IMG/VR virus record: IMGVR_UViG_3300031419_000378
Location: 13,249 to 77,248 of that record
Length of the DNA stretch: 64,000 nucleotides
Strand: one strand, 5' to 3'
From: a virus
Taxonomy: Duplodnaviria > Caudoviricetes
How positions within the stretch are numbered: the stretch's first letter is position 1; the number at the start of each line of letters is the position of its first letter. Positions 30,388 through 57,494 of this stretch are shown in pieces. Position numbers and translations under genes: made by a program. A model generated the notes under the pieces. It saw only the letters and a list, made by a program, of their open reading frames with translations. It was not told the origin of the DNA and did no database searches.

Positions 30388-30411
30388 GTCCGCTTTGTGC
30401 CAGAAGCGGGC
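30388..30411 (+). repeat. 24-bp palindromic cassette repeat, forward copy A1
   Basis: GTCCGCTTTGTGCCAGAAGCGGGC. Confidence 0.9.
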
Positions 30412-30459
30412 CTTGCTAAGATCAATTGAGTTAATTAACCAAACACAGATCAGTCCGTT

Positions 30460-31653
30460 TTATCTCATATTCGCAATATTTATTTCATCATATTCTTGGA
30501 GTTCAACCGTCACACGTATTATTGGAAATTTTCTAGGTCTATATTTACCAATTACAGTTGTCTTGACAGGAGGATAAAGCTGCAAAATATCACTCACACC
30601 ATTGAATAGAGGCCGAAATTTTTTTGATGAAACCATCCCTAATAATATTTTTTCCACTAAATAACTAAACGAAAGATGAGGATTTGTCTGCATGGTATAA
30701 AATAACAATTTAACAACAGATTGGCCGTTCAAGCCGAATGATTTCAATAGCGTAATTAGCTGAGGAGCATGAAGACACATTCTCGATGATATTATACGAT
30801 TTTGAGTTGTGACACTAGATGGGAAATAGGACGGCTTTCCGAGTTGCTTGCTGCGGGCAAGAACATGGTGCACTACCCTTTCCCATGCGGAATTGAAATA
30901 GCGGGCGTTATCAAAATACTCCCCAACCTGACTGCCAGCGACATTATTATTCTGATAAAAACCACTGAGCAACGATCCTAGAGTTTTGTCACATGGATCA
31001 TTCATTAAAGCTTTTCCAACCATCCATCGGCAAGGCCAGATCGGTGATGAGTTAGCATTTCTCGTCGAGGCAGCAACTCCATACCAAGCAAATCGACAGG
31101 GATCAGAATTTGGAGCCTTAGTTAAGTCAACATTACTCTCTTCAACTTTAGTTGTATTGGATGAATATGATATGTCAAATTTTGACCATTTACTATAAAG
31201 CTCAAATTCTTTATAGGTGCTATTTTTTTTCGAAGAATCATATTTCGTGACAGGAACATGGCACACTTGGCTTTCTTTTTCCGTTATTTTTGCCTGTAAA
31301 ATAAACGCTTTATTTCTTTCGCTTAATACACTTTGTGATTGCATGTCAATAATCTTTTCATCAAAGATAAACATTGCATCGCCAAGTTCAACTTTCTTAT
31401 CAAATGGTTTTCCACTGCATAATTTTGCGTAAGGTGCCTTGTCAATCCAGCACAACTGAGAGTTTACATCAATAAAAAGTCTGGGGTTTTTTTGTTTCTC
31501 ATGCTTGTAAATTATTTCTGATAGTTCATCCAGAAAACGTGGTGTAAACAATGCTCCAAGTTGTGTTAGCTCGCCGCCAGTTACATTCCGGCACATCTTA
31601 TTTATAAGATCATCAATCTCTTTCGCCATATTCTCACCACTCACTTTAAACAC
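30460..31653 (-). CDS. Putative PD-(D/E)XK nuclease-fold protein
   Basis: VELGDAMF...FILQAKI fits the E..D...QxK restriction-endonuclease motif; AT-rich. Confidence 0.55.
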   Translation of the reverse strand: MFKVSGENMAKEIDDLINKMCRNVTGGELTQLGALFTPRFLDELSEIIYKHEKQKNPRLFIDVNSQLCWIDKAPYAKLCSGKPFDKKVELGDAMFIFDEKIIDMQSQSVLSERNKAFILQAKITEKESQVCHVPVTKYDSSKKNSTYKEFELYSKWSKFDISYSSNTTKVEESNVDLTKAPNSDPCRFAWYGVAASTRNANSSPIWPCRWMVGKALMNDPCDKTLGSLLSGFYQNNNVAGSQVGEYFDNARYFNSAWERVVHHVLARSKQLGKPSYFPSSVTTQNRIISSRMCLHAPQLITLLKSFGLNGQSVVKLLFYTMQTNPHLSFSYLVEKILLGMVSSKKFRPLFNGVSDILQLYPPVKTTVIGKYRPRKFPIIRVTVELQEYDEINIANMR

Positions 31654-31746
31654 CCCTTAACATTGTAAATTTTAAATAAAAATCAGACCATCATCATATA
31701 ATAGTTTACAGACTTCTCTCTCTGCTACTACTGGAGGATAAGCTGA

Positions 31747-32109
31747 ATGCTTCTGGATAAGCTCAAATTACTCGAATGCAGCCTTCACGGTGATTGGCGC
31801 AACGATGGGGAGTGGCTTGAGCAGCTTCTCCACCCTGAATTTAAGGAGATTACCCGGTCAGGCGTGATGGTTGACCGTTCAGTAACGATCTCGTCACTAT
31901 TAAACGAGAAAAAGTCATCGCCTATTATAAGCAGCGATTTCTGGCTCACTGAAATGGGGAGTGGCTGCGCCATTCTTCACTACCGTACGTCTTGTGCTGA
32001 CGGAAGCCATCCTGCATTGCGCTCCTCATGCTGGTTGTATTCGGAGGAAGGCCAGTGGACTCTGTTTTTTCATCAGGCCACGCCTGCAGCATGTAGCCTA
32101 GGTTTGTGA
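31747..32109 (+). CDS. DUF4440/NTF2-like protein
   Basis: LLHPEF.EI..SG and RSSCW...W...FHQ.TP. Confidence 0.8.
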   Translation: MLLDKLKLLECSLHGDWRNDGEWLEQLLHPEFKEITRSGVMVDRSVTISSLLNEKKSSPIISSDFWLTEMGSGCAILHYRTSCADGSHPALRSSCWLYSEEGQWTLFFHQATPAACSLGL

Positions 32110-32183
32110 TCGAACACTATACTCGCTGGCAGGCTCATTAAACACTGCCAGTTGTCTGTTATTTGATGTAGTCATCAGTAAAT

Positions 32184-32207
32184 GTCCGCTTTTCGCTCAT
32201 AGCGGAC
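32184..32207 (-). repeat. 24-bp palindromic repeat, inverted copy B1
   Basis: GTCCGCTTTTCGCTCATAGCGGAC. Confidence 0.9.
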
Positions 32208-32226
32208 CTTTAATCTTACATGTACG

Positions 32227-32415
32227 TTATCGATTTCCACAGACATCAACTTTTTCACCTGTAAGTCTTTCAACCATCTCCAATGCGTCCGGATCGCCAT
32301 GCCAGGCCATGCAACTTAAACAGTCTCCGCCACAGTCAAAATTCAATGTGTCTGGTGTCTTACTCATTGGCTGATTACAGGTCTGGCAATTGCTTTCTTT
32401 CACTGGAAGTGGCAT
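32227..32415 (-). CDS. Small Cys-rich putative Zn-binding protein
   Basis: CxxC, DCGGDCLSCMA, GDPD. Confidence 0.55.
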   Translation of the reverse strand: MPLPVKESNCQTCNQPMSKTPDTLNFDCGGDCLSCMAWHGDPDALEMVERLTGEKVDVCGNR

Positions 32416-32462
32416 CCGTTTTTAGATTTTTATTTCTATGTTACCTAACATATCACCCTTAA

Positions 32463-32525
32463 ATCCGTTCCTCACTCATAGCGGACTCTAGCCTGCCGTC
32501 AGTCCGCTTTGTGCCAGAAGCGGAC
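32463..32525. repeat. 63-bp doublet: inverted repeat B2 + 15-nt linker + forward repeat A2
   Basis: ATCCGTTCCTCACTCATAGCGGAC-TCTAGCCTGCCGTCA-GTCCGCTTTGTGCCAGAAGCGGAC. Confidence 0.9.
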
Positions 32526-32657: not shown

Positions 32658-33908
32658 ATGCACTTCGATACAAGGAACTATTGGATGGACTTTTTCGAAA
32701 TTGACGAAGATACTGATTTAGACCTCCTTCATTTCAAATTTAAGGATCTGAATAACCAGTTAGGGTACGTCGGTGCTAAAGAGGTTGTTTCTTCTTGGGG
32801 AAATGACTTTTATGATCGCGATAAAAAAGCTAAAAAAGAATTTCAAACATCGTTTCACTCTACTTTTTGGGAGCTCTATCTTCACGCAGTACTGAAGGAA
32901 ATGAACTTCAAAGTTAGCGAAAAGCATAATCGACCAGACTTTATCGTCGAAGCCCCCAAAGAGATGTACATTGAAGCAGTAGTGTCAGAGATTAAAAAAG
33001 ATGGTACTCCTGAAAAACTACGAACTCTAGAGGATGTTGAGGCCAACTTACGGCCGATTAAAACCAAGCGTGAGTTTACAGATATCATCGATGAGGCAAT
33101 ATCACGTCATTCTAACTCCCTAAAATCAAAGCTAGGAAAATACACTGGATATACACGCAAAGATAATACGCCTATTAAAGGATACGTCGATTGTAATTGG
33201 GTTTCGCCTAAGGCTCCATATATAATAGCCTTATCCTCCCATGACCAAATTGCCTATGGCAGAGAATTTATTTATTCCATGTTTGCTTTACTGTATGGGC
33301 ACTATTACGACCCAGAAAATAAAGTATACACCAAAAAAAATAAAATTAAGAAACCCGGCACTGATTCGGATTTAAATCTTGGAATTTTTTTTAACCCAGA
33401 ATTCAAAGAAGTTTCAGCGGTTTTATTTTGCAACACACTGACATTAGGTAAACTCTCTTCGCTACATAAATCAGAAAAAATAAATTTCGATACAGTTCTA
33501 AACATTAGATATTTGCAAGATGAACCGCATTTTCGTGTGCATGAAGTAACACCAGAAAATCCCGAGCAATTACTTGATGGTCTGTACATATTCCATAACC
33601 CACTTGCCAAAAACAAAATAGATTTCGATCTATTTAATAAGTTAGCACAATTCTCTGTGGACGAATATGGGCCACATCAAATTGGCAATTATCCTCTACT
33701 AGTGTCTAGGTTTCACACCAATATGTTGCCTAGTTCAATAATCCCAAGTATAAAGACTGATGCTTTTTCAAGCTACAACCCAGAGTACTGTATGCGAGAA
33801 CTCAAAAAAGAGAGCTGTCTTTTAAAGCCCGCTAAAAGCGAAAGGATCAGGCAAAAGAAAAAAAGGACAAATAAAATCGCGAAGACTTCCCGCAGAAAAA
33901 ATAGATGA
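32658..33908 (+). CDS. Putative PD-(D/E)XK-fold protein
   Basis: FHSTFWELYL...RPDFIV...YIEAV; AT-rich single-gene cassette. Confidence 0.55.
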   Translation: MHFDTRNYWMDFFEIDEDTDLDLLHFKFKDLNNQLGYVGAKEVVSSWGNDFYDRDKKAKKEFQTSFHSTFWELYLHAVLKEMNFKVSEKHNRPDFIVEAPKEMYIEAVVSEIKKDGTPEKLRTLEDVEANLRPIKTKREFTDIIDEAISRHSNSLKSKLGKYTGYTRKDNTPIKGYVDCNWVSPKAPYIIALSSHDQIAYGREFIYSMFALLYGHYYDPENKVYTKKNKIKKPGTDSDLNLGIFFNPEFKEVSAVLFCNTLTLGKLSSLHKSEKINFDTVLNIRYLQDEPHFRVHEVTPENPEQLLDGLYIFHNPLAKNKIDFDLFNKLAQFSVDEYGPHQIGNYPLLVSRFHTNMLPSSIIPSIKTDAFSSYNPEYCMRELKKESCLLKPAKSERIRQKKKRTNKIAKTSRRKNR

Positions 33909-33981: not shown

Positions 33982-34005
33982 GTCTGCAGCGTGCCAGAAG
34001 CGGAC
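33982..34005 (+). repeat. Palindromic repeat, degenerate forward copy A3
   Basis: GTCTGCAGCGTGCCAGAAGCGGAC. Confidence 0.8.
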
Positions 34006-34173: not shown

Positions 34174-35064
34174 ATGTTTAAGTATGCCGTAAACTCGCTA
34201 GCAGATTATGTTTCAACAGTTACAGAAATAGTAAATGAAGTCGATGACATATGGTTTAGAGGACATGCTTGCGCTTCATATAGATTAGCACCTTCGGTAT
34301 TACGTGATACCGTTCCTTTAACTGATGCCAGAGGTAATAGGGTCGAAAATGGTCAGGTGATACGTTCAGAGGGCGGTCATGTAACAGGTCTTAGTCCCGA
34401 AAATATGTTTTATGAATTTAAGTCTCGAGCGGTTCCTTTTTTGAATCGAGAGCCCTCAAATAATTTTGAGTGGATGTTCTTGATGCAGCACTATGGCGTA
34501 CCAACGAGGCTGTTAGACTGGACGACAAACGCCTTAGTTGCGTTATTCTTTGCTATCGAATCAAATCCTACCTCTGACGAAGAGAGGCATTACAACGAAT
34601 GGCCCTCGCAAAATTTTATGGAAAGCGATGAGTTTTGCTCGGAAGGAGCTGCTGTTTTTGCCATAAGCCCATCAGAATTGAATTATCTAACAGTCTCAAA
34701 CAGATCAAAAATTTATATTTGTGAAGAGGCTGATAAATGGAGTCATTACTTCGATCCAATGAATAAAAAAGATGGTTGTAATTTTCTTCCAATTGCAGTC
34801 CAATCAAGTCATATTGATACGAGAATAAGATCACAATCGGGCCACTTTACATTACATGGTTCAAATACATGGGAATTAGACTATTATGATGAGCTTCGTA
34901 AAATTATACATAAAATATTTATACCATATGAAGTGGTACCCCAAATGCTTAAAGATTTGCAAGCTCTAGGTATAACGGAGTCATTTATATATCCGGGACT
35001 AGAATCGTTGTCGCGAGATATCAAAAGAAGCGAAGTTTTTAAATTCAACGGCAAAAAGCTTTAG
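34174..35064 (+). CDS. FRG-domain protein
   Basis: WFRGH, MQHYGVPTRLLDWTTNALVALFFA, RIRSQSGHF. Confidence 0.9.
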   Translation: MFKYAVNSLADYVSTVTEIVNEVDDIWFRGHACASYRLAPSVLRDTVPLTDARGNRVENGQVIRSEGGHVTGLSPENMFYEFKSRAVPFLNREPSNNFEWMFLMQHYGVPTRLLDWTTNALVALFFAIESNPTSDEERHYNEWPSQNFMESDEFCSEGAAVFAISPSELNYLTVSNRSKIYICEEADKWSHYFDPMNKKDGCNFLPIAVQSSHIDTRIRSQSGHFTLHGSNTWELDYYDELRKIIHKIFIPYEVVPQMLKDLQALGITESFIYPGLESLSRDIKRSEVFKFNGKKL

Positions 35065-35105: not shown

Positions 35106-35168
35106 GGCGGCTTATCGCTCATAGCGGACATTGGGCTGGATAGCGTCCGCATTGTGCCAGAAGCGGAC
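35106..35168. repeat. 63-bp doublet B3-15nt-A4
   Basis: GGCGGCTTATCGCTCATAGCGGAC-ATTGGGCTGGATAGC-GTCCGCATTGTGCCAGAAGCGGAC. Confidence 0.9.
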
Positions 35169-35460: not shown

Positions 35461-36213
35461 TTAGCCATCATCTTGAATGGAACAAATACAATTTGCTAGC
35501 CGTGTCGGCTTTAAAAGTCGATAAGCATATTTTCCTTTTAAACTCTGAATATGCCCTAACAATGTGTATCCACTACGTCTTGATAAGTTACTTTTTAAAT
35601 CGGATTCAACTTTAGTATAGTCTTTCACAAAAGCATTGTTTGGTGACTCAATCATTGCTTCTATAATATCAGCCAACCCTTTAAAACCCATTTTTAAATT
35701 ATCTAGAGCGACCACATTTAACTCTTCAATGGCTAGCGTCAAGTCAGGACTTATATCAGTTACACTATCACCTTGAAAAGCGACAACCCATTGCCCATGA
35801 GCAATCCTATTCCTGAGTGCACTTGGCGTTTTCACATAGTCAATGATTAATTTTTTAATATAAGTATCAGCGGAAGATAATTGAACGGAATTGAATGTTG
35901 GTGCTGATAAAACTTTAGCCTTAGCTACTTTTAAGCATCTACGCCATTGAGCTTCCATTCCTTTTAATTTTTTTATACTCTCTATTTCGCTTAATTCAAA
36001 ACCATAAGGAGTATGAATTAATTTTGAGAATAACGCTTCAGTCCAAGCAGAATAAATTAGCGAAAGAGTTTTCGTATGGATTCTTGCCTCAGTATCTCGA
36101 TCATTTTTTAAGGCAAGATTCAAACTAATCTTAGCGATGCGCCAAGCTCGATCTAATTCTTTTATGTTCTTTGTTTGAGATTGGAACACGATAAGTTGTT
36201 GGGCTCTATCCAT
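35461..36213 (-). CDS. HEPN-like protein (RX4H motif), putative RNase
   Basis: LRNRIAHG motif in an all-helical 250-aa protein; N-terminal YSAWTEA. Confidence 0.6.
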   Translation of the reverse strand: MDRAQQLIVFQSQTKNIKELDRAWRIAKISLNLALKNDRDTEARIHTKTLSLIYSAWTEALFSKLIHTPYGFELSEIESIKKLKGMEAQWRRCLKVAKAKVLSAPTFNSVQLSSADTYIKKLIIDYVKTPSALRNRIAHGQWVVAFQGDSVTDISPDLTLAIEELNVVALDNLKMGFKGLADIIEAMIESPNNAFVKDYTKVESDLKSNLSRRSGYTLLGHIQSLKGKYAYRLLKPTRLANCICSIQDDG

Positions 36214-36575: not shown

Positions 36576-36650
36576 GTCTTCTCTTCGCTCATAGCGGACA
36601 TTGTGGCGGACATTGAGCCGGATAGCGTCCGCTTTGTGCCAGAAGCAGAA
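36576..36650. repeat. Doublet B4-A5 with a 12-nt partial duplication and 15-nt linker
   Basis: GTCTTCTCTTCGCTCATAGCGGAC-ATTGTGGCGGAC-ATTGAGCCGGATAGC-GTCCGCTTTGTGCCAGAAGCAGAA. Confidence 0.85.
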
Positions 36651-36787: not shown

Positions 36788-37219
36788 ATGAGCCAAAAAT
36801 TAGAATTCATGTTGTTAGCGCTTGAAAAATCACGTCTAGCGCTCCCAGGCTGTAGACCAAATCCACCCGTTGGGTGCGTGATCGTCCATAACGGGCAGGT
36901 GGTTTCCGATGGCTTCACTCAACATCCAGGTCATCATCACGCAGAGATAGACGCCATTTCAAAACTAGAGGTTCCAATTGGTGAATGTGAAATCTTTGTC
37001 ACACTGGAACCATGCTCCTTTCAAGGAAGAACCCCATCCTGTGCATTGACTCTTGCTGAACTAAAACCACACCATGTCTATGTAGCCATTGAAGACCCGC
37101 ATTCCAGAAACAATGGAGAAGGGCTGAGAATTTTAAAAAATGCAGGGGTCAGCTTTACCTTAGGAATTGGAAAAAGAGAAGTGGAGAAGTTCTTATCGCC
37201 TTATTTGGTGAAGTCCTGA
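36788..37219 (+). CDS. Stand-alone Zn-dependent deaminase (RibD N-terminal-like)
   Basis: PNPPVG, HAE, TLEPCS...TPSC; no reductase domain. Confidence 0.85.
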   Translation: MSQKLEFMLLALEKSRLALPGCRPNPPVGCVIVHNGQVVSDGFTQHPGHHHAEIDAISKLEVPIGECEIFVTLEPCSFQGRTPSCALTLAELKPHHVYVAIEDPHSRNNGEGLRILKNAGVSFTLGIGKREVEKFLSPYLVKS

Positions 37220-37260: not shown

Positions 37261-37323
37261 GTCCGCTCTTCACTCAAAGCGGACAAAGGGCTGGTTAGCG
37301 TCCGCTTAGTGCCAACAGCGGAC
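37261..37323. repeat. 63-bp doublet B5-15nt-A6
   Basis: GTCCGCTCTTCACTCAAAGCGGAC-AAAGGGCTGGTTAGC-GTCCGCTTAGTGCCAACAGCGGAC. Confidence 0.9.
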
Positions 37324-37452: not shown

Positions 37453-37920
37453 ATGGCACGTCGAAGTGAATTAAAAGGTATAGCGATTGCTATTAATGGG
37501 AGTTTTGTAAGCAGAAACAACGACTTAAATGGATACTGGTCAATAGGCAAGATTAAATCATTCGCTCTTGATAACGGCCTTACCTCAGTGACTTTTCCTC
37601 TCACCCTTCCTATGACCAACTCCGCATCAAATCTGCAAAACCATACGGTTAACCGCTACGCCAAAATGCTCAAGAGCCTATTAAATAAACAAAAATTACC
37701 TAGCCTCTGGGTAAGCAACGCGGTCATTACAATCGACTTTGATGCTAAAGCGGGACATGCAAAATTGTATGAAGACACCACCTCAGGCGACCTTTTCCAA
37801 TGCACCTGTAAGATAACTGATGATATTGACCGAGATTACTCATCCATAATGTATGGGCGTTGCTTGCCGCATTCTGTAGTTCGAGAGTTAAAATCGACTC
37901 GAAATTCACCATCATTTTAA
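37453..37920 (+). CDS. Hypothetical protein (single-gene cassette)
   Basis: 155 aa; stop codon abuts repeat B6. Confidence 0.7.
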   Translation: MARRSELKGIAIAINGSFVSRNNDLNGYWSIGKIKSFALDNGLTSVTFPLTLPMTNSASNLQNHTVNRYAKMLKSLLNKQKLPSLWVSNAVITIDFDAKAGHAKLYEDTTSGDLFQCTCKITDDIDRDYSSIMYGRCLPHSVVRELKSTRNSPSF

Positions 37921-37921: not shown

Positions 37922-37945
37922 TTCCGCTCCTCGCTCATAGCGGAC
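37922..37945 (-). repeat. Palindromic repeat, inverted copy B6
   Basis: TTCCGCTCCTCGCTCATAGCGGAC. Confidence 0.9.
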
Positions 37946-38033: not shown

Positions 38034-38411
38034 ATGGCCTTTCAGAACCCCGCCCAGAACTACACTGAAACGCGCCTGAACTTGGGCGATCTGGTCTATC
38101 TTTCACCTTACTCAACCTATCTGATGCGTAGCGAAAGCGACTGTCCCGGTGCCGGGATTGTCAAAGGATCTGTGCTGGCCATTGATCGCGCGCTGACACC
38201 AGCGCACGGTCAGCTTATCGTTGCTGAGTTTGACGGGGAGCTTTCGCTGAGGCGGCTGCTTCTCAATCCTGTTCCCGCCTTGCAGGCGCTGGACGCGGAC
38301 GAGACTATAACGCTGCTTGATGTAAGCCAGGCGCTTCCTGTGTGGGGTGTGGTCGCTTATGCCCTTACCGATATAGCGGGAGTGGGATTCAACGGACCAG
38401 CAGGAGAATAA
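38034..38411 (+). CDS. umuD: UmuD'-like (HumD-type) protein lacking the N-terminal arm and catalytic dyad
   Basis: Starts MAFQNPAQNY (UmuD GFPSPA.DY); no GDSM serine; SLRRL in place of T.KRL; precedes umuC. Confidence 0.75.
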   Translation: MAFQNPAQNYTETRLNLGDLVYLSPYSTYLMRSESDCPGAGIVKGSVLAIDRALTPAHGQLIVAEFDGELSLRRLLLNPVPALQALDADETITLLDVSQALPVWGVVAYALTDIAGVGFNGPAGE

Positions 38412-38413: not shown

Positions 38414-38643
38414 ATGTTTGCGCTGGCCGACGCCAATAATTTTTACGCCTCCTGCGAAACTGTATTCAGACCCGACCTTCGTGGCAAACCCATTGTCGTT
38501 GTGTCCAACAACGACGGCTGCGTTATCGCACGCTCAGCGGAGGCAAAGCGCATGGGCATCAAAATGGCCGCTCCGCTGTTTAAAAATGAGCGTTACTTTC
38601 GTGAGAACGGCGTTCATGTATTCAGCTCCAACTACGAGCTGTA
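38414..38643 (+). pseudogene. umuC: umuC 5' fragment, interrupted
   Basis: MFALADANNFYASCE...FSSNYEL, then premature TAG created by the insertion. Confidence 0.9.
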
Positions 38644-38714
38644 GTAAGTTAAGTGGAATGCAACATTGATTGGGTAAACTTTGAGCAGCAATGCTGTTGT
38701 CAGAGGTAAACACA

Positions 38715-39698
38715 ATGATGATTCCACCAAACGAGGATGTGCTGGTACTGGCGGAGCGCTGGCTGAAACTGCTGTCCGACCTGGGCCGGGCTCAGACCAC
38801 ACTCTCCGCCTACCGCAGTGCCCTCAGCCATTATTTTGCATTCTGCAGCCAGAACAGCATTGAACCTGAAAAGGCCCGGTTTGAAGACCTGGCCGCCTAC
38901 ATCAGCCCTCAGTTACCCGGCATGCCTTTTCCCGCAGCCAGCGCCACGCTCCAGCTGCGCCTTTCTGTGATCCGTCTCTGGTATGACTTTCTGCTTTATC
39001 AGGATATATGCAGTCTCAATCCGCTACCCCGTGCGGGTTTACCCGGCGTCATTTATACCGGGCGGGGGCTGGTCCCGCGTATCACCCGCTTACCCGTAAT
39101 ACCTGATGATGAGCAATGGCTGAAATTTCTTAAACATGTTTCAACTGCCTCCCTGCGTGACCGGCTGATGCTCGCGCTTGCCTATTTTGGTGCACTCCGC
39201 CGTGCAGAGGTGACAGCCCTGGCGCTTGAGGATATCGACCCTGCGCATCGCCTGATCCGTATCCGCCCGGAAACAACGAAAAGCAGGCGGGAAAGAATTA
39301 TTTGTTATGGTCCGGACGTGACGCCGGTACTGGCAAATCATTTTCGGCAGCTGAAGCAGGCTGGCTGGACACAGGGTGCGCTGTTCCGTTCATTTTCTGA
39401 TCGTAATTATGGCACACCCCTTTCTGTGTGGAACTGGAGTAAAACCGTACGCAGATGGGCTCTGGATACCGGGCTTCCACAGATTACAACACATACCTTC
39501 CGCCATCTTCGTCTGACCCATCTGGCGCGGGCCGGCTGGAAACTGCATGAGCTGGCGACTTATGCAGGACACAGGGATCTGCGCACCACACAAATTTATA
39601 TCCATCTGTCAGGTTACGATCTGGCTGGCCGGATAGCCGCAGCCGTGGCTGAAACCGACAGGAAAGTCGCCGGACTTATTTTTCAGGAGCCTTACTGA
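38715..39698 (+). CDS. Tyrosine recombinase (XerD-like, small partner)
   Basis: LRRAE, HTFRH, GHRDLRTTQIY catalytic residues. Confidence 0.9.
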   Translation: MMIPPNEDVLVLAERWLKLLSDLGRAQTTLSAYRSALSHYFAFCSQNSIEPEKARFEDLAAYISPQLPGMPFPAASATLQLRLSVIRLWYDFLLYQDICSLNPLPRAGLPGVIYTGRGLVPRITRLPVIPDDEQWLKFLKHVSTASLRDRLMLALAYFGALRRAEVTALALEDIDPAHRLIRIRPETTKSRRERIICYGPDVTPVLANHFRQLKQAGWTQGALFRSFSDRNYGTPLSVWNWSKTVRRWALDTGLPQITTHTFRHLRLTHLARAGWKLHELATYAGHRDLRTTQIYIHLSGYDLAGRIAAAVAETDRKVAGLIFQEPY

Positions 39699-46919: not shown

Positions 46920-47016
46920 GTCGGCAGTCCTTACGATTAAAAGTTAAATAATGGCGGGCCGGATGCTCTCCGGCTTCAGTCATTTTTATCGTACAGGAGA
47001 AAAATGCTTCCGATCG

Positions 47017-47075
47017 AAAATGACAGAAATGTAATGTAAAAACAGTAAGTTCCAACATTACACAATTGTAATCAT
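47017..47075. promoter_or_regulatory. Putative CusR/PcoR-type copper boxes in the divergent promoter region
   Basis: AAAATGACAGAAATGTAATG and ATTACACAATTGTAAT resemble ATGACA-N4-TGTCAT. Confidence 0.5.
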
Positions 47076-47205
47076 GTCCGTCTTTCAGCTGTGATAGCTT
47101 TCCGGTAACAAAAAATAAACTTCCTGAACGGTAAGCACGGCTTGTGCTTGCGGAGCGGAGAGATTTTTTCTCCCGGGATACTGTGAATTTTGCCGGAGCT
47201 CAGTC

Positions 47206-49026: not shown

Positions 49027-49060
49027 GGTACTGCTGATGTCAGTTTCAGGGTGGAGTGAT

Positions 49061-49969
49061 ATGAAAAAGAATGTGTCGCGTTCTGCGGCAGGATTGCTGG
49101 TTTGGTCTGCACTTGCCGGAACGACGTTTACACCCGTCTATGCCGCGCCAGCGCATAACATGCAGCAGCATGATATGTCAGGGATGGAACATTCTGCTAT
49201 GGGCGGGATGGAGCCGATGGATGGTATGGAGTCCATGCAACCCGCTGCGTCAGCAGAAAGCAGAACGCCCATCCCGCCGGTTACCGAGGCTGACCGTAAG
49301 GCGGCATTTCCGGATGTCCACGGTCATAAAGTTCATGACAGCAGCGTGAATTACTTTCTGCTTGCCGATCAGCTGGAATGGCAGAAAAACAACGATCCTG
49401 GCGGATTCAGCTGGGATGTGAGCGGCTGGATTGGGGGTGACATTGACCGGCTCTGGATGCGCAGCGAAGGCGAAACCAGCGACGGTAAAGCTGAATCCGC
49501 AGAAGTGCAGGCACTGTGGGGACATGCCATTACGCCCTGGTGGGACGTGGTTGCCGGGGCCCGACAGGATTTCCGGCCCGGAAAGCCCCAGACCTGGCTT
49601 GCCGCCGGCCTGCAGGGAATGGCCCTTTACAATTTTGAAACCGAGCTGACAGCGTTTGCCGGCGAGAAGGGGCGAACTGCGCTGAGGCTGGAGGCGGATT
49701 ACGATGTGCTGCTGACCAACCGTCTGATCCTGCAGCCTTCCTTTGAAGCCAATCTTTACGGGAAAGATGATGAAGCGCGTGAAACCGGTAAGGGACTGTC
49801 CAGTACGGAACTCTCACTGCGCCTTCGCTACGAGGTGAAACGTGAGTTTGCTCCATACGTCGGGGTTTCCTGGAGCCAGCTTTACGGTAATACCGCCGAT
49901 ATGGCTGCCCGTGAAGGAGAAAAAGATAACGAAGTGCGTTTCCTTCTCGGGGCACGCATGTGGTTCTGA
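49061..49969 (+). CDS. copB: Outer membrane copper resistance protein CopB/PcoB
   Basis: GGAG RBS at 49053; DQLEW, GLRLRYE-like, terminal WF. Confidence 0.9.
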
Positions 49970-50000
49970 TGCAGTTAATTCAAACAAGACAGGTATTATA

Positions 50001-50381
50001 ATGAAACATTCATCTGCTAAGTATTTCATCGCTGTTGTGGCTTCTGTCACTGCTTTCGCTGTCCAGGCACATCCTGAACTGGCTTCATCAGTGCCTTCAG
50101 ACAAGGCACAGGTTGCGGCTCCTTCAAAAGTAGAGCTTCACTTCACCGAAAATCTGGTGACCAAATTCTCTGGCGCACGTCTGATAATGACTGCCATGCC
50201 GGGCATGTCATCGCACGCGCCAATGCCTGTTGCAGCTAAAGTTGCAGCCGGCAGCGATCCCAAAACCATGATTATCACGCCGGCAAAGCCGCTGCCCGCC
50301 GGGACTTATAAGGTGGAATGGCGTGCGGTGTCATCTGACACACATCCCCGTACCGGCAACTACAGTTTTAGCGTGAAGTAA
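50001..50381 (+). CDS. copC: Periplasmic copper chaperone CopC
   Basis: Signal peptide, mature HPEL, MTAMPGM, DTH. Confidence 0.95.
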   Translation: MKHSSAKYFIAVVASVTAFAVQAHPELASSVPSDKAQVAAPSKVELHFTENLVTKFSGARLIMTAMPGMSSHAPMPVAAKVAAGSDPKTMIITPAKPLPAGTYKVEWRAVSSDTHPRTGNYSFSVK

Positions 50382-50385
50382 TGCT

Positions 50386-51318
50386 ATGAACGATCAGACT
50401 TTTATTGTCATCCGGTTTCTTCTTTACCTTGATCTTATGGTTCTTTTTGGCCTGCCTTTATTTGAGCTTTATGCCCTGAAAGGCGTCTTAAAAAAACCGG
50501 TATCTTTGTTCAGCGTCTGGTCGTTCTTTTTCACGCTCATTTCTGCCGGGATTGTGTTGTCACTGGCAAACATGCTGCTGGTTGCCCAGTCTATGAGCGG
50601 TGTCAGCGACCCCGGTGAGCTGACTCTGCACATTATTGAAATGGTGGTCGGCGAGACCGCTGTTGGCATGAGCTGGGTTGTCCGGCTCGTTGCCCTGACC
50701 ATCGCCTTTGTCGGGCTCGGTCTGCGGCTCAGGAATGCCGTACTTTCACGTTATGTTTTGATGCTGGCAGGCGGTACGGCGCTGGCGACCCTGGCGTGGG
50801 GGGGGCATGCAGCCATGAATGACGGTGTGAGCTATTACGTCCATTTGTTGAGCGATATTGTTCATCTTTCCGCAGCCGGTGCCTGGGTAGGAGCCCTGAC
50901 GGCTTTTACCGTTCTGCTGAGTATAAAAAAAGCCAGTAAAGCGGCTTATGCACTGCAGCTGTCCGGGGCATTAACGGGATTTGCCCGTGCCGGCACGGTT
51001 ATTGTGATAAGCATCGTGATCACGGCAGTGGTTAATTTCGTGCTTATCACAGAAAAGCCACTGAGCACTTTGCCGGGAAGCGTTTACGGCCTGCTGCTGG
51101 TAATAAAGACCGCTCTGTTTTTTCTGATGTTATTGCTGGCTGCCGCCAACCGCTTCCGGCTTGCACCAAAGCTGGAAAATGCCCTGCTTCAGGGCCACTA
51201 TAAGGCGGGTATTGCACTGATGCGTAAAAGCATTATTACAGAATTTACCGTAGCGGTACTGATACTGGCAATTGTTGCCTGGCTGGGCACCCTGTCGCCA
51301 GGAACCGGTATGGAGTAA
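50386..51318 (+). CDS. copD: Inner membrane protein CopD
   Basis: Multi-TM; GHAA, HL.AAGAW.G, LAAANRF. Confidence 0.9.
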   Translation: MNDQTFIVIRFLLYLDLMVLFGLPLFELYALKGVLKKPVSLFSVWSFFFTLISAGIVLSLANMLLVAQSMSGVSDPGELTLHIIEMVVGETAVGMSWVVRLVALTIAFVGLGLRLRNAVLSRYVLMLAGGTALATLAWGGHAAMNDGVSYYVHLLSDIVHLSAAGAWVGALTAFTVLLSIKKASKAAYALQLSGALTGFARAGTVIVISIVITAVVNFVLITEKPLSTLPGSVYGLLLVIKTALFFLMLLLAAANRFRLAPKLENALLQGHYKAGIALMRKSIITEFTVAVLILAIVAWLGTLSPGTGME

Positions 51319-51344
51319 CAATTAACTGCAGGAAAAAACGCATC

Positions 51345-52025
51345 ATGACAACCATGCTGATTGTTGAGGATGAACTGAAGACCGGTACTTACCTGAAGCA
51401 GGGACTCCAGGAAGCAGGCTATGACGTGACCCTGGTGAACGACGGGCGTCAGGGCCTGGAGCATATTCTGCGACAGCATTATGACCTGATAATCCTGGAC
51501 GTCATGCTGCCCTCAATGGACGGCTGGGATATCCTGCAGCAGATGCGCATGGCACGCCACGAAGAGCCCGTCCTGTTCCTGACGGCCAGAGATAACGTCA
51601 GCGAAAAAATTAAAGGGCTCGATCTGGGCGCGGATGATTACCTGCTAAAACCTTTCGATTTTGCCGAGCTTCTGGCCCGTATCCGCACGCTGCTCAGGCG
51701 TAACCGTACACAGGCTTCAGGAAACCACAGCATTGCAGATCTGATCATGGACGCCTCCCGCCGGACCGTGAGCCGGTCGGGGAAAAAAATTCACCTGTCT
51801 ACCAAAGAGTTTGTGCTGCTTGAGTTGTTGTTACAGCGAACCGGGGAGGTTTTGCCAAGAAACCTGCTTTCCTCCCTGGTCTGGAATATTAATTTTGAAA
51901 GCGATACCAATGTCATTGACGTTGCCGTCAGGCGGCTTCGCAGCAAGGTAGATGATGACTTTACGCCAAAGCTCATTCATACCGTGCGGGGCATCGGTTA
52001 TGTTCTGGAGATACGTGAAGAGTGA
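51345..52025 (+). CDS. Heavy-metal response regulator (CopR/CusR/PcoR)
   Basis: Receiver LDVMLP, GADDYL.KPF, OmpR-type C-terminus. Confidence 0.9.
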   Translation: MTTMLIVEDELKTGTYLKQGLQEAGYDVTLVNDGRQGLEHILRQHYDLIILDVMLPSMDGWDILQQMRMARHEEPVLFLTARDNVSEKIKGLDLGADDYLLKPFDFAELLARIRTLLRRNRTQASGNHSIADLIMDASRRTVSRSGKKIHLSTKEFVLLELLLQRTGEVLPRNLLSSLVWNINFESDTNVIDVAVRRLRSKVDDDFTPKLIHTVRGIGYVLEIREE

Positions 52026-53428
52026 AGCGTAACTGGTCCCTGACTACACGGCTGAGCGTGATATTTGCCGGTGTAATGATGTCTGCCTGGCTTCTTTCCA
52101 GTGTCCTGCTTGTTGCTGCCCTGAGCAGCTATTTTCGCCATCAGGATGCCGCACTGTTGACAGGAAAGCTTGAGCTGGCAACCGAACTACTGGAAAGTGG
52201 AGCTGATTCCGGGCAGCCAGACAGTGCTTCGCTTGCACGCAAGGTTGCCGATGCCATGGTAGGTCACAGCGGATTGTATCTGTCGATTAAAACGTCGGAT
52301 AACCGGTTACTTGCCGACTATTCCTCGCCCGGTTTTCCGCTTCCTTACGGACGTTTTGCCAGCGAAGCCGCATATCCGGATACGATGCAGACAGTAGAGG
52401 ATGAAGGCTGGCGTTATAATGTTATTGTCAGAAAAATCAGTGCGCAGAAAGCAGGCGGACAACATGATGTCCTGATAACAGCCGCTTATGATACCGGCTT
52501 TCATGATGAATTTATCAGCCAGCTCAAAAAATGGCTGATTTGGTTCAACGGCGGGCTGATGTTCATTTCGGTATTACTGGGCTGGTTTGTCACAAGGATG
52601 GGTCTCAAGCCGCTGAATGAATTAAACCGTCTGGCCTCCGCTGTCACCATCAACAACCTCAGTAAACGTCTTCCTGCGCACAATCTGCCGGCCGAGCTGA
52701 TGGCTACCGTGGCTGAATTCAACAGCATGCTTGAAAGGCTGGAGAAATCCTTCAGGCGCCTTTCTGAGTTTTCATCGGACATTGCCCATGAGCTGCGTAC
52801 GCCTGTCAGTAACCTGATGATGCAGACGCAGGTTGCCCTGTCCCGGGATCGTGATGCAGCCAGTTACCGGGAGGTACTTTTCTCTAATCTGGAAGAGCTG
52901 AGCCGGCTTGCAAGAATGAGCAGCGACATGCTTTTTCTGGCGAAGTCAGAAAATGGCCTGATGATACTGGAGAAGCAGAACGTCTCCTTGCACGAAGAAC
53001 TCGAGGAACTGATTGATTTCTTCGAGCCTCTTGCTGGTGAAAGTCATAAAACGCTGAAGCTTAAAGGTGATGCTCTCGTCAGAGGCGATCGCCTGATGCT
53101 GCGTCGTGCGCTGAGTAATCTGATCACCAACGCCATAAAATATTCTCTGCCGGGCTCTGCCATATCCGTATCAGCAGAGCATAACTCGGACAGGGCCTTT
53201 GTACATATTTCCAATCACACAGAAGATATTGCACCGGAAAGTCTGGGCCGACTGTTTGACCGTTTTTACCGGGGCGATGCATCCAGGCAGCATAATACGG
53301 ATGGCGCGGGACTCGGTCTTTCTATTACGCGGTCCATTTTGCTGGCCCATGAAGGCGATCTGCAGGTAGCCGTGAATGATAATGTCATTACGTTCACGGC
53401 CATCATGCCGGCAACAGAGGGACCGTAA
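52022..53428 (+). CDS. Heavy-metal sensor kinase (CopS/CusS/PcoS)
   Basis: HAMP, AHELRTP, N box, FDRFYR, GAGLGL. Confidence 0.9.
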   Translation: MKRNWSLTTRLSVIFAGVMMSAWLLSSVLLVAALSSYFRHQDAALLTGKLELATELLESGADSGQPDSASLARKVADAMVGHSGLYLSIKTSDNRLLADYSSPGFPLPYGRFASEAAYPDTMQTVEDEGWRYNVIVRKISAQKAGGQHDVLITAAYDTGFHDEFISQLKKWLIWFNGGLMFISVLLGWFVTRMGLKPLNELNRLASAVTINNLSKRLPAHNLPAELMATVAEFNSMLERLEKSFRRLSEFSSDIAHELRTPVSNLMMQTQVALSRDRDAASYREVLFSNLEELSRLARMSSDMLFLAKSENGLMILEKQNVSLHEELEELIDFFEPLAGESHKTLKLKGDALVRGDRLMLRRALSNLITNAIKYSLPGSAISVSAEHNSDRAFVHISNHTEDIAPESLGRLFDRFYRGDASRQHNTDGAGLGLSITRSILLAHEGDLQVAVNDNVITFTAIMPATEGP

Positions 53429-53554
53429 TAACAAAATTTTCCGGGCTAAAATTTCATGATTTGAACTGCTCTGTATCAAGGTTATGTTCCCGGACATATG
53501 AAAGGATGCCCGGGAAAACCTGAAGTAAATATCTTACCTATGAGGAGTTACCTT

Positions 53555-53905
53555 ATGAAAAAACCGCATATGATTCTTGCCTCCCTGCTGTTTGTCCTGC
53601 CGGCTGCGGTTATGGCTCAGCAACCGGCCTCAAAAATGACGCATGAGATGAGCATGTCTCCGGCATCAAAAGAGTACATGTCAGGTATGCAAAAGATGCA
53701 CAGTAGCATGATGAATGCCCTGAAGGAGCAGGACGCTGACAGGGCGTTTGCCAAAGGCATGATCGAGCATCACAGGGGCGCGATTGCCATGGCTGAAACG
53801 GAGCTGAAATACGGGAAAGATCCGGAAATGAAGAAGATGGCAGAAGATGTCATCAAGGCACAGAAAAGTGAAATAGAGCACATGGAAGCGTGGCTGAAAA
53901 AATAA
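53555..53905 (+). CDS. DUF305/CopM-like periplasmic metal-binding protein
   Basis: Signal peptide, MI.HH.GAI.MA motif. Confidence 0.85.
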   Translation: MKKPHMILASLLFVLPAAVMAQQPASKMTHEMSMSPASKEYMSGMQKMHSSMMNALKEQDADRAFAKGMIEHHRGAIAMAETELKYGKDPEMKKMAEDVIKAQKSEIEHMEAWLKK

Positions 53906-54044
53906 CGGTCATCCGGCTTTATAAACGCTCTGAAGGGTTCTGCCCAAAGAATCCTTCAGTAAGCTTGCATCCATTATACACTCAGCTAAACAGGTTTAAT
54001 TTTACAGCGTCATCATACAGATATATCTGACGCCATTACGTTAA

Positions 54045-54263
54045 AGCCTGATTATCACCAACTGATATTCAGGGATACCCCACATATTGGCGCTGGCCTG
54101 GCTGCCCAGCTCGCGCTGTCCGGGAATAAGCGCCTCCGGATAAAGCGATTCCGGCAGGCCCGAACGCCACATAAGGGAATCCAGGGTGCTGAGGAAGTAG
54201 GGATTGAGCGCTCGGGCCGCTGTATCGCATGAGTAGCCGGCAATGCTGCCGCCAATTAGCGAG
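54045..54263 (-). pseudogene. Internal fragment of a TraU-like ICE gene
   Basis: Untracked frame: LNPYFLSTLDSLMWRSGLPESLYPEALIPGQRELG...NMWG. Confidence 0.65.
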
Positions 54264-54285
54264 GTGGCCGGATGTCTGTGAGTTG

Positions 54286-54573
54286 TCAGTAGGAAGAAAG
54301 GAGGTCAGAACGATCCCCTCGTGTCGTCGGATGCGAAATTACAATAAATTCTACGGGAGACTCAGTGTCGTTTCTGGCTTGATGCTTTGACCCCGGTGGA
54401 ATTTCTAGCCCCTGCAGGGCTTTAATTTTGCGCATTTCACCTTCCAACTCTATTGAAAGAATGCCATTGAGAACAAAGAAAAACTGTCTGGAAACGGAGT
54501 GAAAATGTCGCTTTTCAGAAGTGCCGGGAGGCATTTTTTCATGAATAACCAACCTGTCTTGACGGTTTACCAG
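54286..54573 (-). pseudogene. 5'-truncated cupin-domain gene fused to an IS110 remnant
   Basis: EKMPPGTSEKRHFH...FFFVLNG...IPPG.KHQ..N cupin motifs. Confidence 0.75.
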
Positions 54574-54927
54574 ATAACGCAGCATTAACTCTAATGCCAG
54601 CTCTGCATCCTGCGGGTCATCTTTAGCGCCGCTGGGCGAGAAGGCTTGCCGGTAACGAGCCAGGGACAAAGCGTGGACGGGGAAAACGGTGATAAAGGGA
54701 TATTTTTGAAGAGCATATACCACGGGGCCCTTCTTCAGCTCGAGAGCTATGGCGATTCTGCCTTTTACTTTCTGGTGTAACTCGGTAAGCCAGACATCAA
54801 GCGCTTCTGGTGTATGTTCAATCACATGGAATACGCGTTCACCGTTTTTAAACTGAACACAGACATCGTGTTTTTTATCTGCCCAGTCCAGACCAACATG
54901 TGCAGCGAACTGATTAGTCGCGGTCAT
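54574..54927 (-). pseudogene. IS110-family recombinase, N-terminal DEDD domain only
   Basis: VGLDWADKKHDVC, IALE, GAKDDPQDA; C-terminal domain absent. Confidence 0.8.
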
Positions 54928-55146
54928 CACCAACTCCTCTTCATCGGGGATTGGTATGCATTCCACGCTCTTCGAAAGAAATATAGCCAGCAGTTTATCT
55001 GCATGTCCTGAGTATTCGTTAGCGAACGTGGAGCACCTACTGGCTCGAAAGAAAAGCGGCGATCATCGCATGATTCTCGCTCAATATTCGTAACCAGTAA
55101 GCGCATACCCTGAATCACTTCAAAGTGTAATTCTCAGGGTGCGAAT

Positions 55147-55170
55147 GACTATATTTCGCTCAGAGCAGCC
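55147..55170 (-). repeat. Degenerate inverted palindromic repeat B7 near the element's right end
   Basis: AAT-GACTATATTTCGCTCAGAGCAGCC; shares the TTTCGCTCA.AGC.G.C core with B1. Confidence 0.55.
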
Positions 55171-55213
55171 ATCAAATCCGAAATAGTCCTGTAGATTTTC
55201 CATTCCACATAAA

Positions 55214-56246
55214 CGGCGACATGTCAGCACGCATGATGGCCATTCTGGGCGAGATGGCTGCGGGTCAGGAAGTCTACTCCATTGATGAGTCATTTCTGGA
55301 CGTTACCGGGATTGGCAACATTATCCCGCTCGAGACATTCGGGCAACAGATGCGCGAGCGCATTCGAAAGGAAACCGGGCTAATAATCGGCGTGGGATTC
55401 GCGCCTACTAAAGCGCTGGCCAAACTTGCTAACCACGCGGCCAAAAAGTGGACACAGACGAACGGTGTTGTGGACCTGTCTGACAGAAGCCGCCAGCGAA
55501 AGCTCCTGTATCTGACAGATGTCAGCGATATATGGGGAATTGGACAGCGTATCAGTAAACGGCTAAACGAGCTGGGAATAACAACGGCTTTGCAGCTTGC
55601 AGACAGCAACATCAGCATGATAAGGAAAAATTTTGACGTTATCGTTGAGCGGATTACGCGCGAGCTGAACGGCGAGTCCTGCATAGCTCTTGAAGATGCG
55701 CCGCCGCCCAAACAGCACATACTGAACTCGCGATCATTTGGCGAGAGAGTAACAAAACTGGAAGACATGCAGCAGGCTATCGTGCTGTATGCCACGCGTG
55801 CGGCGGAAAAGCTCAGGGAGCAGAATTCGCGCTGCCGCCATATTAGCGTGTCAGTTGCTACCGGCAGGCATGGCGATGAGCCGCGATACTCTAATACTGC
55901 ATCATGCATCTGCGACTATCCGACCAATGATACGCGGGACATTATTGAATTAGCGCTTCGCGGGCTTAGCACTATCTGGCGTGATGGCTTTCGGTACGCC
56001 AAAGCAGGGGTGATGCTAGGTGACTTTTACCAGTCAGGCACGACGCAGTTTGACATGTTCAGTGAGCAGCAGCCGCATGCAAACTCAGATGCACTGATGG
56101 CAGCCCTAGACGGTATCAATCGCTCAGGAAAAGGCAAGGTATGGTTTGCAGGGCAGGGAAATCGTGACAGTTTATGGCAGATGAAGCGAGAAATGCTGTC
56201 GCCACGCTACACAACAAGGATAAAAGATATTCCAAAAATAAAATAA
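55214..56246 (+). pseudogene. umuC: umuC 3' fragment
   Basis: GDMSAR, YSIDESFLD, SRSFG, W.MKREMLSPRYTT. Confidence 0.9.
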
Positions 56247-56291
56247 CCTTTAACTGATAAAGCGAAGGTGGATCGGACATGACTGTGTAAG

Positions 56292-56315
56292 GTCCGCTAG
56301 GTGCCAGAAGCGGAC
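56292..56315 (+). repeat. Palindromic repeat, forward copy A8
   Basis: GTCCGCTAGGTGCCAGAAGCGGAC. Confidence 0.9.
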
Positions 56316-56430
56316 ATTGCTAACATAGCGATATGCCCATTCCCCCGTGCATGCAGAACAAAGAGGTTACGATTCACGGGCAATTGGATATATAGTATAA
56401 AAAAATTAGTAAACTGAGGAAGCTATATGA

Positions 56431-57123
56431 ATGGAAAATAAAATAACTGTCAGAAAAAAGGATTCTATATATTTAAGTATGTTGCTTGGTAAAGATATCA
56501 AAGAGGGAGCTGTACTTGCAACGTTATCATCTGAAAAGCTGGTGGAATCAATTGATTATATAAAAATCAAAGAAGCGTACTCAAAAGCACATGATATTAG
56601 AAAGTTTGAGATAGATTTGTATTGGAAACGAGCGAATTACTTTTGGGTTTTCATGACAGCCCTATCCGGCTTGATTGGATTTTCATTTAATAGTGACAAT
56701 GATTATATAAAATTATTGTCACCTGCACTCTGTATCATGGGTTTTATTTTTGGGTTAGCATTTTTGGCAGCTAACCAAGGTAGTAAATTTTGGCAAGAAA
56801 ACTGGGAGAAGAACTTAGATATGTTAGAGTTCTATGTATCTGGTGACTTATACAAAATTACTGCAAAACTCAAACTAACAAAACCATCTGTTAGTAAAAT
56901 TAATATTTACATAGCAAAAACATTATGTTTACTGTGGGTGGTTGTCTTTGTGTATTCACTGTCTTTTTCATTCTTCTCTATAGAAAGCCCGAGTCATTCC
57001 TTTATATTCATCTGCATATATTCCTTTGTGTCAATCGCAATTCCAACTTTATTTTGGAGTAAAGTAAAAAGCTCAAGTATATCATCTTATAAAGCTGAGT
57101 TTGAAAAGCGAAATGTTAGTTAA
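56431..57123 (+). CDS. AT-rich 4-TM membrane protein, putative defence effector
   Basis: FEIDLYWKRANYFW and GSKFWQENWE motifs, which I associate with RipA-like membrane proteins (unverified). Confidence 0.6.
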   Translation: MENKITVRKKDSIYLSMLLGKDIKEGAVLATLSSEKLVESIDYIKIKEAYSKAHDIRKFEIDLYWKRANYFWVFMTALSGLIGFSFNSDNDYIKLLSPALCIMGFIFGLAFLAANQGSKFWQENWEKNLDMLEFYVSGDLYKITAKLKLTKPSVSKINIYIAKTLCLLWVVVFVYSLSFSFFSIESPSHSFIFICIYSFVSIAIPTLFWSKVKSSSISSYKAEFEKRNVS

Positions 57124-57470
57124 CGTCCCATTTCAACCCATTATCATGGTTCTCATGATCATAATTCTCATGATTATAATTCTCCTTCAGTAAATCTAGG
57201 GTTATACGCTCTCATGAATTCCAAGCAAGTTCGGGATGCTGAACTTGCTTAAACTCAATTTAGTATTGAATCCCTTCCTCGGTGTTACTAACCTCGAAAA
57301 GCCCTAATTTAATGTATCAATCTTCATTGCTTCCTCCACAAGCCTTGATTACGTGTATCGCGTTGATTACTTCGTTTGAGAGCTGTGTTAAAAGACTGTG
57401 ATTTGCTCCCTAGAAATGAATACGCGGTTTCATTAGCATATTCTTCACCTACTACCTGATCATTATTAAC

Positions 57471-57494
57471 GTCCGCTCCTCTCTCATAGCTGTT
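57471..57494 (-). repeat. Degenerate inverted palindromic repeat B8
   Basis: GTCCGCTCCTCTCTCATAGCTGTT. Confidence 0.7.

Follow-up and report, generated by a model that had tools for sequence, protein, structure and literature searches.

A 27-kb array of palindrome-bounded gene cassettes in a Pantoea-type phage: probable recombination sites and a candidate small tyrosine recombinase

Anti-phage systems are known to accumulate in variable hotspots of phages and plasmids, yet the way in which the cargo of these hotspots is exchanged is unsettled. This question is raised by the stretch of DNA analyzed here (the window, 64,000 nucleotides, bases 13249-77248 of the 77-kb IMG/VR virus record IMGVR_UViG_3300031419_000378), in which small genes are set between copies of a 24-bp palindrome from position 30388 to position 57494. 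An earlier note on this DNA had read the palindromes as recombination or processing sites that stack single-gene modules, integron-like but with neither attC sites nor an IntI integrase. That reading is supported, having survived tests of unit recurrence, genome-wide spread and cassette order. On present sequence comparisons, we consider it most likely (probability about 0.6) that the palindromes are double-strand recombination sites, that cassettes are exchanged at them by a tyrosine recombinase of ~200 amino acids (aa) consisting of the catalytic domain only, which we name sYR and which is encoded outside this record, and that the window is a recombinase-less array. The window is a good specimen for the question, with 16 sites, close relatives that differ by whole cassettes and a nested transposon slot; the units and their precise limits, the likely points of crossover and a candidate enzyme are all identifiable here, and the question thereby becomes testable at the bench.

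All sites share the layout GTCCGC-N12-GCGGAC, with like arms and one of two loop types, A or B. The 16 palindrome copies claimed between 30388 and 57494 resolve into 14 clear sites, eight A and six B in a scan tolerating two arm mismatches, and two decayed ones. The A copies (GTCCGC-nnn-GTGCCAGAA-GCGGAC, loop TTTGTGCCAGAA) begin at 30388, 32502, 33982, 35145, 36627, 37300, 41826 and 56292, all on the + strand; the B copies (GTCCGCTyTTCrCTCAtAGCGGAC, loop TCTTCGCTCATA) begin at 32184, 32463, 35106, 36576, 37261 and 37922, with two arm mismatches at most. The decayed B site at 57471 keeps a perfect left arm and the B loop beside a decayed right arm, and that at 55147 retains the loop and part of the right arm. 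Across the window the A motif was matched seven times at up to three mismatches (0.00 expected) and the arm-only pattern GTCCGC-N12-GCGGAC ten times (0.06 expected). The 30-kb late region is free of copies, as had been noted, a lone arm match at 20827 being at chance level and having an unrelated loop. The sites are all co-oriented, whichever strand the cargo occupies. Whether B is an inverted A, as first described, is ambiguous, since the two loops match at 7 of 12 positions inverted and at 5 of 12 direct; it is therefore preferable to regard A and B as distinct site types that share their arms. A third type, with unchanged arms and a 13-nt loop (TTTACCCCCGAAA; 55 copies, e.g., L128 6742 and L214 601), is common in Alphaproteobacteria and was not seen in the window.

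The array lies downstream of an EPS (exopolysaccharide)-depolymerase-type tail spike (27075-29477) in a Pantoea-type phage and is, with its 16 sites, the largest that we saw in an enterobacterial phage in this analysis. Units of one or two genes stand between sites and are linked by doublets of B, linker and A. The order is A, 397-aa (- strand) and 120-aa genes, B, 62-aa gene (-), B-A, 416-aa gene, A, FRG gene, B-A, 250-aa gene (-), B-A, deaminase gene, B-A, 155-aa gene, B, umuD and umuC, A, 8xMP gene, B. Of four junctions described as B-15 nt-A, three have that spacing (32463/32502, 35106/35145 and 37261/37300), while the fourth (36576/36627) has a 27-nt linker. This linker (36600-36626, in the third doublet) carries 12 nt duplicated in tandem (GCGGACATTG-nn, twice), suggestive of a slipped or repeated exchange at the B arm. 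The inner halves of the doublets (CTCATAGCGGAC, linker, GTCCGCnTTGTGCCA) are nearly invariant, and the cargo-side halves are decayed. The features of the main array are as follows.

30388..30411, + strand: A site, lone left border of the slot, 47 nt past the last backbone open reading frame (ORF); backbone and A site also in phage contig L144
30460..31653, - strand: cargo, 397-aa protein with no family match
31747..32109, + strand: cargo, 120-aa protein, weakly DUF4440-like
32184..32207, + strand: B site
32227..32415, - strand: cargo, 62-aa Cys-rich protein
32463..32525, + strand: doublet of B (32463-32486), 15-nt linker and A (32502-32525)
32658..33908, + strand: cargo, 416-aa PD-T7-5-type defence protein (PADLOC, E 1.2e-61)
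33982..34005, + strand: A site, left half decayed, with no B before it
34174..35064, + strand: cargo, 296-aa FRG-domain protein, PADLOC candidate PDC-S15
35106..35168, + strand: doublet of B, 15-nt linker and A
35461..36213, - strand: cargo, 250-aa protein with no assigned function
36576..36650, + strand: doublet of B, 27-nt linker (12-nt duplication) and A
36788..37219, + strand: cargo, 143-aa cytidine/dCMP-type deaminase
37261..37323, + strand: doublet of B, 15-nt linker and A, folding as one long hairpin
37453..37920, + strand: cargo, 155-aa protein with no assigned function
37922..37945, + strand: B site
38034..38411 and 38414..38641, + strand: umuD, then the N-terminal 76 codons of umuC
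56292..56315, + strand: A site, 45 nt past the umuC stop; P. agglomerans plasmid L232 likewise has an A site behind umuC
56431..57123, + strand: cargo, 230-aa 8xMP membrane protein
57471..57494, + strand: B site with decayed right arm, right border of the slot; L144 backbone similarity resumes at 57542

The description of the cargo as rich in defence domains stands in part: the 416-aa protein (PD-T7-5) and the FRG protein (PDC-S15) were identified by PADLOC, but Pfam did not confirm the PD-(D/E)XK and HEPN assignments.

The sites were found to bound units that recur independently of one another. Six units of the array turn up on plasmids of Pantoea or Raoultella, where their flanks are the same but their neighbors differ, as had been anticipated for cargo homologues. 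Of the array, plasmid pJZ2-02 has the deaminase unit alone, with both of its sites complete (36627-37284, A start to B end). The 155-aa unit is 99.3% identical on plasmid pCB1C across 37261-37945, with different neighbors on both sides: a GNAT gene stands to its left instead of the deaminase, and a further cassette to its right instead of umuD. The 250-aa unit (35212-36602) has a 94.5% identical counterpart on a Raoultella plasmid, where the match stops at the end of B and the unit adjoins a B-A doublet and other cargo. On P. agglomerans megaplasmids the 62-aa unit (32183-32528) recurs as B...B-A behind an HNH gene, and on a P. dispersa plasmid the DUF4440-like unit (31730-32210) recurs and ends at a B site. 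The sixth case is an 8xMP homologue (37% identical) that stands behind an A site on the Raoultella plasmid. In addition, the FRG protein is 96% identical on Klebsiella plasmids, with a match that stops inside the B site. Cassette order also proved variable between replicons, three other cassettes occupying the deaminase position on pCB1C. As for the slot itself, the backbone of a related phage contig, L144, matches that of the window as far as the A site and resumes the match 48 nt beyond the last B; in between lies a single 2.8-kb A...B unit versus the 27 kb of the window. Searched by megablast against the phage collection, the array gave no match.

Similarity ends at the sites far more often than expected by chance. 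Among 226 loci, 183 of 753 internal megablast breakpoints lay within 30 bp of a site, compared with 15.5 ± 3.4 expected (~12-fold), and the highest value in 200 randomizations was 24. A hint of where crossover occurs comes from the pCB1C match, in which four of the five mismatches are confined to the left B site, within its first 12 nt. The doublets of the window, with nearly invariant inner halves and decayed cargo-side halves, are asymmetric in the same way. Metagenomic depth spikes and contigs that diverge at site ends indicate that the sites are repeated in those communities and no more; joints in metagenome contigs have sides of <30 nt, which come from other doublets, and therefore give no verdict on excision. 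Breakpoints at conserved sites would be equally expected if there were no dedicated enzyme and the 24-63-bp borders served as microhomology for general or phage (Red/RecET-type) homologous recombination; module shuffling at borders has been proposed for the boundary sequences of lambdoid phages and for the promoter early stem-loop (PeSL) motifs of T4. Homologous recombination would, however, leave unexplained both the arm-centre-arm layout, which is that of tyrosine-recombinase core sites, and the constancy of arms and loop length between Alpha- and Gammaproteobacteria (the loop measured 12 nt in 382 sites and 13 nt in 55 sites of the loci examined). We regard it as unlikely.

A dedicated enzyme is suggested by sYR, which was found beside such sites in other genomes. 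All sYR homologues listed carry PF00589 and align to only the catalytic part of XerA, XerC and XerD, and the residues R, K, HxxR, H/W and Y are readable in homologue P0122. With only ~35 residues before the catalytic domain, sYR has no N-terminal core-binding domain. It falls below every NCBIfam cut-off and has at least 8000 relatives. Homologues occur in 13 of 151 Erwiniaceae genomes; the Pantoea-family and alphaproteobacterial proteins share 52% identity, and the A sites that go with them hardly differ. In all nine aligned Erwiniaceae sYR loci the gene lies between hybrid B and A half-sites. Conservation of this block begins in the B-like centre, at ...CTCAT (...CTCATAAGGGAC), and ends in the A-like centre, where a hairpin (AGGGCTG...CAGCCCT) is followed by GTGCCA and the loci diverge beyond. 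Because both limits of conservation fall in site centres, the sYR unit occupies the exact place of the 15-nt linker of a doublet. Neither this nesting between half-sites nor the ending of conservation in the centres is explained by homologous recombination.

Viral genomes gave a similar picture. Sixty-five viral sYR loci were found by protein alone, and the 28 full-length matches examined represent 18 distinct flank contexts, of which ~13 hold hybrid half-sites; in the enteric lineage 16 of 16 nearby sites are co-oriented with the gene. In the alphaproteobacterium G002 a 210-aa PF00589 sYR is encoded twice, each time mid-array, and the sites on the left of the gene point one way and those on its right the other. 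The two copies (L209 7534-8430 and L210 7499-8440) are identical and lie in opposite orientations within the same mirror-image B-site frame, and the gene segment may itself be invertible. More distant sYR lineages are accompanied by site variants with GGCCAGAA centres and GGCAGC arms, in copies too few to call co-variation. ORF clustering across ~200 site-bearing loci yielded no enzyme, only common families such as one of ~327 aa by alphaproteobacterial sites.

In the mechanism that we favor, each site has a 10-bp centre of kind A or B between inverted arms of 7 bp (GTCCGCT / AGCGGAC). A cassette starts with the right half of A, continues through the cargo and closes with the left half of B; the right half of B and the left half of A, with the ~15-nt linker between them, form the junction unit, whose position is taken elsewhere by the sYR gene. 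The enzyme would have to act in trans here, because its gene is absent from this record; supplied by the host or by another element, sYR would swap strands between two A sites or between two B sites, within their centres, and such exchange would excise, insert and swap cassettes among phages, plasmids, transposons and islands. The window would then be an sYR-less hotspot behind the tail-spike gene, comparable to a cluster of attC sites lacking an integron integrase (CALIN), whose slot has presumably grown to 27 kb through ~9 stacked cassettes and a plasmid-type umuDC block, the latter itself interrupted by a transposon with its own A...B slot. If the cargo-side halves of a window doublet (e.g., 37261-37323), left half of B and right half of A, were joined, a perfect 9-bp stem (GTCCGCTTC...GAAGCGGAC) would result, as expected of a circularized cassette junction; no such short-loop 'empty' hairpin was present in the 226 loci.

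Several observations weigh against this mechanism. The sYR gene is absent from the 77-kb record and also from the related plasmids pAR1aC, pCB1C and ZJU23 and the Raoultella plasmid. Its co-occurrence with the sites at the genome level is weak: among Erwiniaceae the exact A motif was present in 5 of 13 genomes with sYR and in 24 of 138 without (Fisher p = 0.08), in the alphaproteobacterial sYR family the exact motif was found in 1 of 18 sYR-bearing genomes, and alphaproteobacterial genome G001 has 56 sites and only a relic of sYR. Both the record without sYR and the weak co-occurrence would be natural under homologous recombination. No excised circle, empty site or inversion was seen, and some unit borders carry no site (e.g., 31654-31746 and the left side of the FRG match). 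Moreover, as the A and B centres differ, simple chemistry does not explain how doublets originate. Finally, sYR may be a parasite that merely targets the sites, much as some insertion sequences and group II introns target attC.

The distribution of the sites bears on whether they are repeats that move on their own account. The exact A motif (21 specified bases) was found on >120 genome contigs and 70 viral contigs, usually with a B-like hairpin 15-22 nt upstream. A sites were present in 29 of 151 Erwiniaceae genomes (0-9 copies per genome across the 151), and Pantoea and Citrobacter chromosomes were near control level for the arm-only pattern; with copy numbers this low, and confined to islands and mobile elements, the palindromes are not genome-wide repeats in Enterobacterales. 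Two alphaproteobacterial genomes contain 56 and 141 perfect palindromes, clustered in islands made up of rows of small, mostly unannotated genes, with a single site or a doublet (21-nt linker) between one gene and the next. It could be argued that the 63-bp doublet is a mobile repeat resembling repetitive extragenic palindromes (REPs) and their mosaic elements (BIMEs) or hairpin-forming doublets (REPINs), with sYR in its autonomous form, and that it inserts between genes. Such a repeat would account for junction units better conserved in the window than the cargo-side half-sites, for the resemblance of the doublet linker to the 3' flank of sYR, for the match of doublet 32463-32525 alone to many Pantoea plasmids and for the 56-141 copies per alphaproteobacterial genome. 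It would not account for cargo and sites that travel as units, for the same slot holding different cargo, for a lone A and a lone B at the slot ends in three phage backbones or for copies that are clustered in islands rather than spread over the genome; in addition, no insertion polymorphism of the doublet alone was found, and no Y1/RAYT (REP-associated tyrosine transposase) gene (PF01797) was found in G001 or G002. We judge this account quite improbable.

The palindromes might also act in RNA or transcription, terminating, insulating or being processed as hairpins between morons that are expressed independently, and mark module ends for that reason alone. Each can form a 7-8-bp hairpin, B sites lie 2-75 nt past stop codons, and each forward cargo gene is preceded by 115-170 nt of its own, all of which would suit such a role. 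No T-runs follow the sites, however, and only 2 of 14 are terminator-like by score; a search of 29.5-58.5 kb against Rfam at a permissive threshold placed no family at the sites. Site orientation is independent of the cargo strand and loop length is fixed. Among 60 sites with one mismatch per arm, the two mismatches fell on the same base pair in 14 (10 by chance), and 10 of those 14 were compensated, so that 10 of the 60 are compensated, close to chance. Arms without covariation and a fixed loop length fit protein-binding core sites better than RNA hairpins, and we consider an RNA role very unlikely. The doublet at 37261-37323 folds as one long hairpin and the other doublets as two, so folding does not decide between a single-strand and a double-strand substrate for the recombination that we favor.

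The recombinases of the window itself had been suggested as the enzymes of the array. These two proteins, of 335 and 707 aa, lie in an element that splits umuC, with the following features.

38642..55202, + strand: element in umuC, 16.6 kb, with two tyrosine recombinases and then its own A...B slot
38691..39698 and 39698..41821, + strand: tyrosine recombinases of 335 aa and 707 aa
41826..41849 to 55147..55170, + strand: nested slot with A site (41826-41849), ars and cop operons and decayed B site (55147-55170)
55203..56246, + strand: umuC C-terminal part; residues 74-419 of an intact homologue at 55203-56234

In favor of the pair, an A site begins 5 nt past the stop of the 707-aa gene and the cargo of the element ends in a decayed B. 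The pair was nevertheless rejected as the array enzyme. No homologue of either protein was found in ~200 other site-bearing loci, and on many Pantoea plasmids (including L232 and L233) the pair recurs always inside umuC and at the same point, with cargo that varies after the equivalent of window position ~41796 and usually without an A site. Residues 1-76 of umuC are encoded at 38414-38641, and residues 74-76 are duplicated at the joint, an overlap in keeping with site-specific transposon behavior. On these comparisons the pair is part of a separate transposon in umuC, and its role as array enzyme is most improbable. The sites at 41826 and 55147, which had been counted with the main array, both belong to the nested slot of this transposon. 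The element may be of the Tn554 type, which is marked by a TnpA/TnpB-like pair of tyrosine recombinases and one specific target gene: its two PF00589 proteins recur inside umuC on many Pantoea plasmids, and no TnpC was seen.

Among known systems, the closest precedent is the Z/fun hotspot of phage P2 (AF063097). An A site (15335-15358) directly follows gene G, a B-like site lies near 17440, ~110 nt before the pF activator site, and the two bracket fun(Z); in P2-like contigs the end of the G gene is likewise followed by an A site and then by varied cargo. With A and B-like sites around fun(Z), the repeats of the P2 Z/fun hotspot belong to the same system. Nilsson, Karlsson and Haggard-Ljungquist (2004, Mol Biol Evol 21:1, under a title beginning 'Site-specific recombination links...') reportedly described inverted repeats that bound the Z/fun (G-FI) hotspot of P2-like coliphages, and the palindromes at fun(Z) were thus probably already noted in 2004. 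The same palindromes stand at both borders of the G-FI insert, but that case concerns just one slot of one phage family and names no enzyme, whereas the window holds a 16-site array in an unrelated backbone, and doublets, a nested transposon slot, plasmid and alphaproteobacterial arrays and a candidate recombinase are added here. A literature search with the motif letters and descriptive phrases returned nothing relevant, and no description of the sYR enzyme was found in the literature covered.

Integrons and CALINs share with the array mostly one-gene cassettes, imperfect palindromes, cassettes that recur in different arrays, a tyrosine recombinase (a candidate one here), recombinase-less arrays and anti-phage cargo. 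They differ in several respects. No IntI, a tyrosine recombinase with an integron-specific extra domain, is present here: the best match to the IntI model is the 335-aa protein, at 59 bits versus a cut-off of 265, and sYR gives none. Read directly, the 16 sites have no attC R/L boxes and no GTTRRRY core; there are two site types and doublets, and the cargo genes occupy either strand and have upstream regions of their own. The sYR protein has ~200 aa without a core-binding domain and its gene sits at a mid-array junction, in contrast to an integrase at the array end with attI and Pc; furthermore, the present sites are found in phages and in Alphaproteobacteria. The pdif modules of Acinetobacter plasmids (XerC/XerD) likewise consist of small gene modules between arm-centre-arm sites of ~24-28 bp in many contexts, with a recombinase in trans (proposed here). 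By reading, the sites are unlike dif (XerC arm, 6-bp centre, XerD arm); they are co-oriented rather than alternating, they form doublet junctions, and the candidate enzyme is not XerCD.

With REP/BIME and REPIN-RAYT systems the array has in common paired palindromic units, conserved linkers and an enzyme gene flanked by repeats. The flanked gene here, however, encodes a PF00589 tyrosine recombinase, not a Y1 HUH transposase, and there is no GTAG head; copies number 0-9 per enterobacterial genome in islands and mobile elements only, versus hundreds chromosome-wide for REPs, and the units bound exchangeable cargo. T4-type PeSLs are also short conserved stem-loops, which flank shuffled accessory genes in the hyperplastic regions of phages, but they carry an early promoter and are thought to use homologous recombination, whereas our sites have no promoter consensus and are associated with a recombinase.

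From these comparisons we would give roughly even odds to the broader proposal that the sites and sYR constitute a second system of cassette capture and exchange, independent of integrons, in which a minimal recombinase of ~200 aa works on 24-bp sites, which is present in Gamma- and Alphaproteobacteria and probably in other phyla, and which is the missing swap mechanism of defence hotspots such as P2 Z/fun. Should the enzyme work as proposed, this would account for the presence of the same small genes in unrelated phages, plasmids and transposons. Cassettes could then be delimited and mined by rule, and many of the cargo genes here are without a known family. It would also add to the toolbox a very small site-specific recombinase with a 24-bp site.

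Minor observations concern the surroundings of the array. Plasmid pAR1aC carries, upstream of umuD and thus at the position of the window array (L233 8455-12268), a row of small defence- or toxin-type genes (TIR, an RNase A-like contact-dependent inhibition toxin with its immunity gene, and PLD) with no recognizable A or B sites. The cargo of the umuC element on plasmid ZJU23 comprises genes for fluoride export (crcB), enolase and phosphoglycerate mutase, versus the ars and cop operons here. The tail-spike region ends in a strong intrinsic terminator (30019-30050; 9-bp GC stem and T-run), ~340 nt short of the first A site; this terminator caused a spurious partial Rfam match to AbsR28. The 250-aa cassette contains a tRNA-like element at 36275-36364 on the - strand (Rfam tRNA, 34.7 bits against a gathering threshold of 29), in which 26 nt replace the 11-nt anticodon arm and for which ARAGORN made no call; the element is conserved with the cassette on the Raoultella plasmid.

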